Assembly (NCBI RefSeq): GCF_001447785.1
Contig: NW_015172020.1
Span: 965,302-1,029,301 of the forward strand
Direction of reading: 5' to 3'
DNA from: Gekko japonicus
Taxonomy: Eukaryota
DNA: 64,000 bases
Positions 29,807 to 31,443 of the stretch are shown here, one piece after another. A program made the position numbers and the translations under genes. The notes beneath the pieces are model-generated. The model did no database searches. It worked only from the letters and a program-made list of their open reading frames with translations, and was not told the origin of the DNA. The first letter of the stretch is position 1. Each line of letters opens with the position of its first letter.

Positions 29807-29940
29807 TTTAGTAAGCTCTAAGAAACATTAATTGTACTTCTCATTTAAGTGTACCTCAGTAGTATTGCCAAGTTGATTTCTAAGCAATTCTAATGACAAT
29901 TTCCTCTGGAGATTTCTGACTGTAATCTGTCTTTATTTAG

Positions 29941-30005
29941 GCTCTGTTTCTAAGAAACACAAGAAGAAAAAAGAAAAGAAATATTTGCCGGATGAAGATG
30001 TTGCT
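29941..30005 (+). CDS. DKC1: DKC1 exon 2, copy A (GSVSKKHKKKKEKKYLPDEDVA, NLS)
   Basis: TTTAG| acceptor, |GTGAGT donor, 65 nt, phase 1 to 0. Confidence 0.8.
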
Positions 30006-30600
30006 GTGAGTTTCCGTGATTGTTTAGCATATTTGGTTTGCAAATAAACTCCATACCCTGTATATGGTGGCAGATAAAAATGTTGTTTAGTTGATTGTGT
30101 TCTTCCTGAGCTGATGCTACATTTCTGCAGAGTTCAAATATGAGCATTGATGGTGTATCATTGGCAATTAATATATCATTAACATATCAGCCAGTGAGCC
30201 ACAGTCAGAGACTGTGGTTTGAATAGCCTTTATTCTTTCTCCAGGGGCTCTTGCTCCATAGGAACAGGAAAGCAGAGCTGACAGGCAGCCCTAAACTGCG
30301 GCTTGCTTTTATTGGTAGAAGCTCAAACTTGGCAGCATATTTGAGCCACTGATTATTATGCTCCTCTGTGGCCCTATATAGTATGCCCCATTTTTCATTT
30401 TGTGGCACAGTAAAGAAACTTGAAAATTGAAGTATTTAATATTTATTTACTCTTTGTGGACTCTCAGTGTACAGTAGCTTCCGAGTTTCCTGACAAATGA
30501 GATCTATGACCCTAAACACCTTTACACTTACAAGCCATTCTAAGCAATTCTAATGACAATTTCCTCTGGAGATTTCTGACTGTAATCTGTCTTTATTTAG

Positions 30601-30665
30601 GCTCTGTTTCTAAGAAACACAAGAAGAAAAAAGAAAAGAAATATTTGCCGGATGAAGATGTTGCT
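30601..30665 (+). CDS. DKC1: DKC1 exon 2, copy B (identical)
   Basis: Identical exon and splice sites within the duplicated unit. Confidence 0.6.
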
Positions 30666-31443
30666 GTGAGTTTCCGTGATTGTTTAGCATATTTGGTTTG
30701 CAAATAAACTCCATACCCTGTATATGGTGGCAGATAAAAATGTTGTTTAGTTGATTGTGTTCTTCCTGAGCTGATGCTACATTTCTGCAGAGTTCAAATA
30801 TGAGCATTGGTGGTGTATCATTGGCAATTAATATATCATTAACATATCAGCCAGTGAGCCACAGTCAGAGACTGTGGTTTGAATAGCCTTTATTCTTTCT
30901 CCAGGGGCTCTTGCTCCATAGGAACAGGAAAGCAGAGCTGACAGGCAGCCCTAAACTGCGGCTTGCTTTTATTGGTAGGAGCTCAAACTTGGCAGCATAT
31001 TTGAGCCACTGATTATTATGCTCCTCTGTGGCCCTATATAGTATGCCCCATTTTTCATTTTGTGGCACAGTAAAGAAACTTGAAAATTGAAGCCTTTAAT
31101 ATTTATTTACTCTTTGTGGACTTTCAGTGTACAGTAGCTTCCAAGTTTCCTGACAAATGAGATCTACGACCCTAAACACCTTTACACTTACAAGCCCTTC
31201 TGCTTTGTAAGATTTTCTTCTAAGTACTCTTACGATCGTACAGTACAAAAAGGAGATCTTGCTTGGAATTGTGGTGTCCTGTACATAACTGTATTGCACT
31301 GCTGAGAAATTTGTATATCACTGGCTGGTGCTTCAGCCCTTTTAGAGGTAAATAGTCACGAAGAAATGTTGTTTGCAAGAGAAGCACCTGGCATTTTTGT
31401 ACACGAATCCCAACTATTAATCTACATGCTCATTTACCCCCAG

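Follow-up and report, generated by a model that had tools for sequence, protein, structure and literature searches.

Tandem copies of exon 2 in the assembled DKC1 gene of Gekko japonicus: very probably a heterotype false duplication and not new gene regulation

The window considered here, a stretch of 64,000 nucleotides from a contig of the Gekko japonicus assembly, contains a gene that can be identified as DKC1, encoding a predicted dyskerin of the Cbf5-TruB family, by its domains, by its identity to protein P0001, and by a SNORA36 match in intron 8 (Table 1). The host of SNORA36 is conserved (PMC1687206). With either exon 2 copy alone, the gene encodes a dyskerin of 517 amino acids, and all 517 residues match P0001, which carries the NCBI name Gekko japonicus H/ACA RNP subunit 4 and the precomputed domains PF08068, PF01509, PF01472, and PF16198. 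The DKC1 of Paroedura picta (P0002) is identical to the predicted protein at 479 of 518 positions. A Pfam scan of five DKC1 exons matched TruB_N, DKCLD, and TruB_C_2 in three of them, and 2 of 40 candidates were recovered in a homologue search that used exon 14. The G. japonicus protein model has one copy of exon 2, a fact that does not discriminate between the readings weighed below, and the N-terminus of P0002, single and ordinary, says nothing of the intron in that species.

Human SNORD17 and SNORD83 are hosted by SNX5 and RPL3, respectively, and the occurrence of both in gecko DKC1 may mean that lineages differ in the host gene. Their alternating order along the gene suggests an old intragenic duplication. 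Neither is mentioned in PMC11880993. In a scan of positions 27900-47500, no RNA family reached its gathering score within the repeated unit that spans exon 2, and none had E<=1 there; the nearest match, snoZ30a at 31350-31436 (E 0.99), is at chance level.

Several other features surround the gene. A long open reading frame on the minus strand (4070-5347) carries a rhodopsin-family 7TM domain (E 3.9e-42). On the plus strand, an intronless, GC-rich reading frame (20727-21711) is interrupted by a run of 181 N, across which the frame changes; neither part has a Pfam match, and the frame is a candidate F8A1/HAP40, which it resembles. Tail to tail with DKC1 lies the last exon (48110-48289, minus strand, E 5.6e-8) of a guanylate-kinase-domain gene with more exons upstream, presumably MPP1, as in the human locus. 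The intron on the acceptor side of this exon is covered by a 137-nt tandem pair. Three inverted repeats (12742-13163, 12086-12261, and 9409-9552; arms of 208, 77, and 69 nt, spacers of 6-22 nt) are probably MITE-like elements, the first having a related arm at 1646-1848. A tRNA-like SINE (29567-29800; families D13, D14, D16, and D17) ends about 80 nt upstream of the unit that repeats exon 2 and could mark a contig boundary.

Table 1. Coordinates of DKC1, its repeated unit, the tandem pairs, and the snoRNA matches (positions within the window).
Feature	Position	Strand	Remark
DKC1 (dyskerin) coding span, 15 exons	28004-45813	+	GT-AG introns throughout, open frame
DKC1 exon 1, coding part, 16 nt	28004-28019	+	
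DKC1 exon 2 copy 1, 65 nt	29941-30005	+	N-terminal lysine-rich stretch
DKC1 exon 2 copy 2, 65 nt	30601-30665	+	sequence equal to copy 1
DKC1 exon 3	31444-31530	+	double-skipping stop at 31479-31481
DKC1 exon 4	32032-32123	+	double-inclusion stop at 32045-32047
Copy 1 of 660-bp unit (putative haplotype A)	29878-30537	+	
Copy 2 of 660-bp unit (putative haplotype B)	30538-31197	+	match extends 4 nt, to 31201
Apparent intron between exon 2 copies, 595 nt	30006-30600	+	ordinary GT-AG
Difference cluster, 5 in 75 nt	30433-30507	.	partner 31093-31167; identical runs between differences at most 28 nt
Identical 29 nt from last allele-like difference to junction	30508-30536	.	k-mer anchor
Junction	30537-30541	.	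one orphan base, then 4-nt overlap found at all three boundaries
63-nt tandem pair	22724-22846	.	29 identical nt from copy 2 start to first difference
65-nt tandem pair without signature	26569-26683	.	end runs 14 and 21 nt
174-nt tandem pair, DKC1 intron 1	28638-28988	.	identical runs 29, 17, 19, 28, 16, 11, 8, 42; 3-nt overlap
70-nt tandem pair, DKC1 intron 6	34204-34336	.	30 identical nt; one orphan junction base
137/124-nt tandem pair	48296-48556	.	blunt junction, 29 identical nt
SNORD17 match, DKC1 intron 6	34503-34736		above gathering score
SNORD83 match, DKC1 intron 7	35588-35663		above gathering score
SNORA36 match, DKC1 intron 8	35938		above gathering score
SNORD17 match, DKC1 intron 10	40117-40363		above gathering score
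SNORD83 match, DKC1 intron 11	41485-41561		above gathering score
SNORA56 match, DKC1 intron 12	42231		below gathering score, E 1.8e-12

Exon 2 lies in a head-to-tail repeat with a period of 660, in which 8 mismatches and no indel are found over 664 nt (98.8% identity; self-BLAST E 0.0, far above chance), the match ending at 30541/31201. The mismatches fall at unit offsets 273, 442, 556, 557, 586, 606, 630, and 660, all of them intronic and 3' of exon 2, and the last (30537) is the junction base, an orphan that differs from the left flank as well as from copy 2. The exon copies are identical, as are the acceptor AG, the polypyrimidine tract, the branch-point-like CTGAC, and the GTGAGT donor. 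A first-pass annotation of the locus had described such a unit, with about eight mismatches confined to the distal intronic part and with the exon and both splice sites unchanged, and this description holds in full. Judged from its 98.8% identity, the pair cannot be old. There is no N between the copies, nor any closer than 9 kb to the junction; N occurs in the window in two runs, of 181 nt at 20926 and of 27 nt at 46926, neither at the 30537/30538 junction, and these runs, the first of which breaks the GC-rich reading frame, point to a short-read scaffold.

The repeat bears directly on the reading frame. Exon 2 runs from phase 1 to phase 0, and the inclusion of both copies gives 82 codons followed by the TGA in exon 4, the exon in which the first-pass annotation had placed the stop. 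Skipping both copies gives 17 codons and then the TGA in exon 3. Both products stop early and far upstream of the last exon junction, the double-inclusion stop by 1295 nt; the annotation's arithmetic leading to nonsense-mediated decay (NMD) is right, and the decay itself is a prediction. Two routes of rescue were considered and set aside. Re-initiation would begin at the next in-frame Met, residue 242, past the start of TruB_N in exon 5. Among alternative splice sites, 7 AG and 8 GT candidates near exon 2 were examined: the other donors score at most 5 of 9 against 7 for the real donor, and an internal acceptor at 29955 equals the real acceptor in pyrimidine fraction but ends in AAG. The two exon copies, being identical, are indistinguishable in mRNA, and a read that shows no more than an exon2-exon2 junction could equally arise from one exon by back-splicing or template switching.

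Loss of Dkc1 is embryonic lethal in mice, according to the title of a reference cited in PMC8594475, and the consulted part of the same source reports disease caused by DKC1 missplicing that is coupled to NMD. A fixed, real duplication with two intact sets of splice sites is a priori unlikely because dyskerin is essential, NMD discards the default product, and the next Met is residue 242.

The identity of the two exons could suggest selection, a possibility that the distribution of differences does not bear out. Eight differences placed at random over 660 nt would all miss the exon with P 0.44, and the exon together with its splice signals (103 nt) would be free of differences with P 0.26; the longest identical run, of 272 nt, is likewise unremarkable (P 0.12-0.19). 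The differences instead crowd the junction end, six of the eight falling within the final 105 nt (P 0.009 with 8 events and 0.035 with 7), and the allele-like divergence is raised at the repeat boundary, where five differences fall within the 75 nt adjoining the junction. Away from the junction there are seven differences. They look like germline-type variants and not sequencing errors, since six of the seven are transitions and each copy shows one CpG decay. The same pattern stands against a homotype false duplication, in which sequencing errors in one copy would account for the differences. That class of error was the larger one in the single Illumina assembly of Ko et al. (PMC9516828, Table 1 of that paper, consulted in part), and here it is scarcely credible.

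The structure of the junction is not peculiar to DKC1. A catalogue of near-identical tandem pairs in the window, compiled from exact same-strand 14-mer matches within 3 kb together with TRF and self-BLAST, holds 11 pairs, six with units of at least 60 nt and five with units of 15-35 nt; an older array at 3231 (68% identical) was left out. In five of the six two-copy repeats of at least 60 nt, the identical run adjoining the junction measures 29, 29, 29, 29, or 30 nt, if a single junction base is disregarded in the 660-nt pair and in the 70-nt pair. In four of these, copy 2 starts 29, 29, 30, and 29 identical nt ahead of the first difference. The 660-nt pair is their mirror image, copy 1 ending 29 identical nt after the last difference and before the orphan base. 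The five short pairs have runs of 14-23 nt and lack the signature, as does the 65-nt pair, which has a 14-nt indel, lies inside repeat family D11 (a copy of which near 63000 matches 5S rRNA), and may be a real local duplication.

The signature was seen before it was tested, and the test therefore allows any shared run value. Under a null of uniformly placed differences, with event counts taken by eye, the simulated probability that five of six pairs share any 2-nt window is between 1.6e-4 (runs of at least 10 nt) and 7e-4 (runs of any length). For four of the five other pairs alone it is 0.012, and the 660-nt pair alone reaches 29-30 nt with P 0.028-0.034. We know of no mutational process that fixes a distance of 29-30 nt, whereas an assembler's k does. 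A second test, devised here and not a published criterion, treated the copies of each pair as alleles in a k-mer graph, scanning K from 17 to 63. An allele-specific arm ends exactly at the junction in four of the six pairs at K=29 and in one at K=30; one further match, at the other end of the 174-nt pair, appears at K=39, and there is none at any other K in the range. In both the 660- and the 174-nt pairs the longest identical run inside the cluster is 28 nt, a single nucleotide too few to close a bubble at K=29, so each cluster forms a single long bubble, with arms of 133 nt in the former (30404-30536 and 31064-31196) and of 164 nt in the latter.

The assembly thus demonstrably holds gapless, tandem, allele-like pairs, five of them inside a span of 26 kb around exon 2 in the 64-kb window, and the surplus sequence from these five flagged pairs comes to about 1.7% of the window. 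The 63-, 174-, 70-, and 137-nt pairs are, on this sequence signature, probably also cases in which both haplotypes stand in tandem. For exon 2 of DKC1, the most convincing reading is a heterotype false duplication and not new gene regulation, and this is very probably correct. The first-pass annotation had proposed two haplotypes assembled in tandem as one option, which the signature in five of six tandem repeats supports; its statement that this option and a regulated duplication were equally consistent with the data does not stand, as the junction favours an assembly artefact.

Under a false duplication, the gecko would have one exon 2 per chromosome, and the differences between its homologues would include a tight group of sites in intron 2. 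The copies differ at five sites in 75 nt, with at most 28 identical nt between neighbours, and at two isolated sites. In a graph of 29-nt nodes, the cluster is calculated to give one bubble with two arms, and copy 1 ends on the last base of its arm. The bubble may have been too divergent to merge, so that both arms became contigs scaffolded in series with a gap between them. Gap filling may then have run from arm B (31064) back some 526 nt through exon 2, the overlap going unrecognized and the Ns being removed. DKC1 would be spliced from exon 1 to exon 2 to exon 3, giving the 517-residue dyskerin, and its intronic snoRNAs would be released normally.

Much of this course has precedent in what was available of the assembly literature. 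Where homologues diverge by many SNPs and short indels, each may yield its own contig, the two being placed at almost one scaffold position, and SOAPdenovo2 fills gaps by iterative extension (PMC3626529); bubbles can lead to regional allelic expansion (PMC7423139). The gecko pair resembles these heterozygous contig pairs of de Bruijn assemblies in placing two contigs at nearly the same position, with gap filling and allelic expansion. Those accounts, as far as consulted, describe scaffold conflicts and expansion, whereas the gapless tandem product is the gecko's. False duplications are enriched at high heterozygosity and include false exon gains (Ko et al., 2022, PMC9516828). As in such heterotype cases, the gecko copies are near-identical, lie in tandem within a gene of a gapped draft, carry an exon twice, and sit where apparent heterozygosity changes between low and high. 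They differ in having no N between them, and the call here is made from assembled sequence alone; the criteria given in the consulted part of that paper are read depth, k-mer multiplicity, and read-pair discordance, and the run of 29-30 nt is not among them. Among the literature matches listed, no paper describes a gapless tandem signature with a fixed junction run, and none an exon 2 duplication of gecko DKC1.

Several observations speak against an artefact. The junction has no N, unlike the usual gap-separated false duplications, and incorrect gap filling only sometimes joins false duplications without a gap (PMC9516828, as consulted). The overlap of 4 nt at three boundaries and the orphan base resemble a microhomology-mediated duplication; under the artefact model they would be a coincidence or a join over a short overlap. 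The 29-nt run lies on the 3' side in the 660-nt pair and on the 5' side in the other four, the 660-nt unit has about four times the length of any other in the catalogue, and one of the six long pairs and all five short ones lack the signature.

The gapless junction, the overlap, and the orphan base are what a real, non-adaptive tandem duplication on one chromosome would leave, produced by microhomology-mediated repair or by template switching between homologues. Such an allele would be hypomorphic or a loss of function, with both exons included by default and the mRNA degraded, and the seven to eight differences would be pre-existing polymorphisms. Allele-specific tandem duplications at haploid depth do exist (PMC9516828, in the part consulted), and default co-inclusion is known from the duplication of exon 2 in DMD, which causes Duchenne disease and whose duplicated transcript has been measured in untreated cells (PMC3982197, PMC5363679, both consulted in part). 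As in the gecko, a short second exon is duplicated out of frame with its splice sites. The DMD duplication, however, is a disease allele with a far larger unit and possible downstream re-initiation, which DKC1 lacks before Met242, beyond the start of TruB_N. Under a non-adaptive duplication, moreover, the 29-nt run would agree by chance, at 3%, with the value common to four neighbouring pairs, and this reading is considered unlikely.

A third possibility is a real, fixed, regulatory duplication, in which one copy is normally chosen, whereas mRNA that includes or skips both copies goes to NMD and the snoRNAs are still released. In this respect the assembled sequence shows what tandem mutually exclusive exons show, namely homologous exons of equal length and phase whose joint inclusion shifts the frame towards a stop and predicted NMD (Hatje et al., PMC5740500; Ivanov and Pervouchine, PMC6071210). 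According to the consulted part of the former source, 60% of human clusters of mutually exclusive exons have lengths not divisible by three. That both aberrant outcomes give early stops and that DKC1 hosts six snoRNA matches would suit such a switch. The gecko copies are distinguished from known pairs by being identical, by encoding one protein, and in that the search turned up no steric or U2/U12 enforcement and no significant structural one.

Four means of enforcement are described in the available parts of these sources: steric interference, U2/U12 incompatibility, NMD, and competing RNA structure (PMC5740500, PMC6071210). Steric interference, with less than 50 nt between donor and branch point, is absent from the 595-nt intron, where the nearest branch-point-like motif lies 89 nt from the donor and the likely, 3'-most one 574 nt from the inter-copy donor and 21 nt from the acceptor. 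A search for the U12 donor motif found none, the three introns around the exon 2 copies all being GT-AG. The best pairing between the unit and unique intron 1 reaches -41.9 kcal/mol against -39.1 +/- 1.9 for shuffled sequences (2 of 25 as good), and that between the unit and intron 2 reaches -29.1 against -29.9 +/- 2.8 (33 of 60 as good), which is shuffle level. With no steric or U12 mechanism found and no pairing significantly above shuffles, NMD alone would be left, which discards the default product.

Among 109 inverted pairs, one candidate has docker-selector geometry, a stem of 18 nt at 83% in which 29163-29180 could pair with 30281-30298 or 30941-30958. Duplication of one arm of an intronic stem can produce competing pairings (PMC6071210, as consulted), and one could picture a duplication, fixed in the gecko lineage and tolerated from birth, in which this intron 1 element pairs with the duplicated site and loops out one copy. 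Leakage would then act as an unproductive-splicing switch that lowers dyskerin but not the six snoRNAs. The same stem would, however, have looped out the sole ancestral exon 2, and the chance of this scenario is very slight. Poison exons are conserved across species together with their flanks, show regulated inclusion, and are stabilized upon NMD inhibition. For gecko exon 2, the poison-exon or mutually exclusive option of the first-pass annotation finds no positive support: its exon identity lies within chance, the same peptide comes from both copies, neither splice site has decayed or specialized, and the 29-nt signature is left unexplained. A fixed regulatory duplication is accordingly judged highly improbable. 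These gradings of the four readings are judgements rather than computed values.

The outcome proposed in that annotation, in which NMD of the host transcript uncouples dyskerin from snoRNA output, resembles cases already published, as the consulted parts of the sources have it, for SNORD86 (PMC11028025, a review that describes uncoupling through alternative splicing together with NMD) and for isoforms of mfl, the Drosophila orthologue (PMC1821038). The gecko differs in that no snoRNA lies in or adjoins the 660-bp unit, and use of such a mechanism at this locus is not indicated. Were the duplication real, uncoupling of snoRNA and protein would not itself be new as an idea. A duplication both real and fixed would reveal by what means an essential gene can withstand the duplication of a frame-shifting exon, and it would open the origin of mutually exclusive splicing to direct testing on an exon pair caught before coding divergence.

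If the duplication is an artefact, gecko dyskerin is ordinary and the value of the finding lies in method. In this assembly, tandem pairs that are near-identical and gapless should not be taken for duplications, and a fixed identical run of 29-30 nt beside the junction offers a cheap, read-free flag for them. Other findings on the G. japonicus assembly that build on near-identical tandem copies merit the same check.
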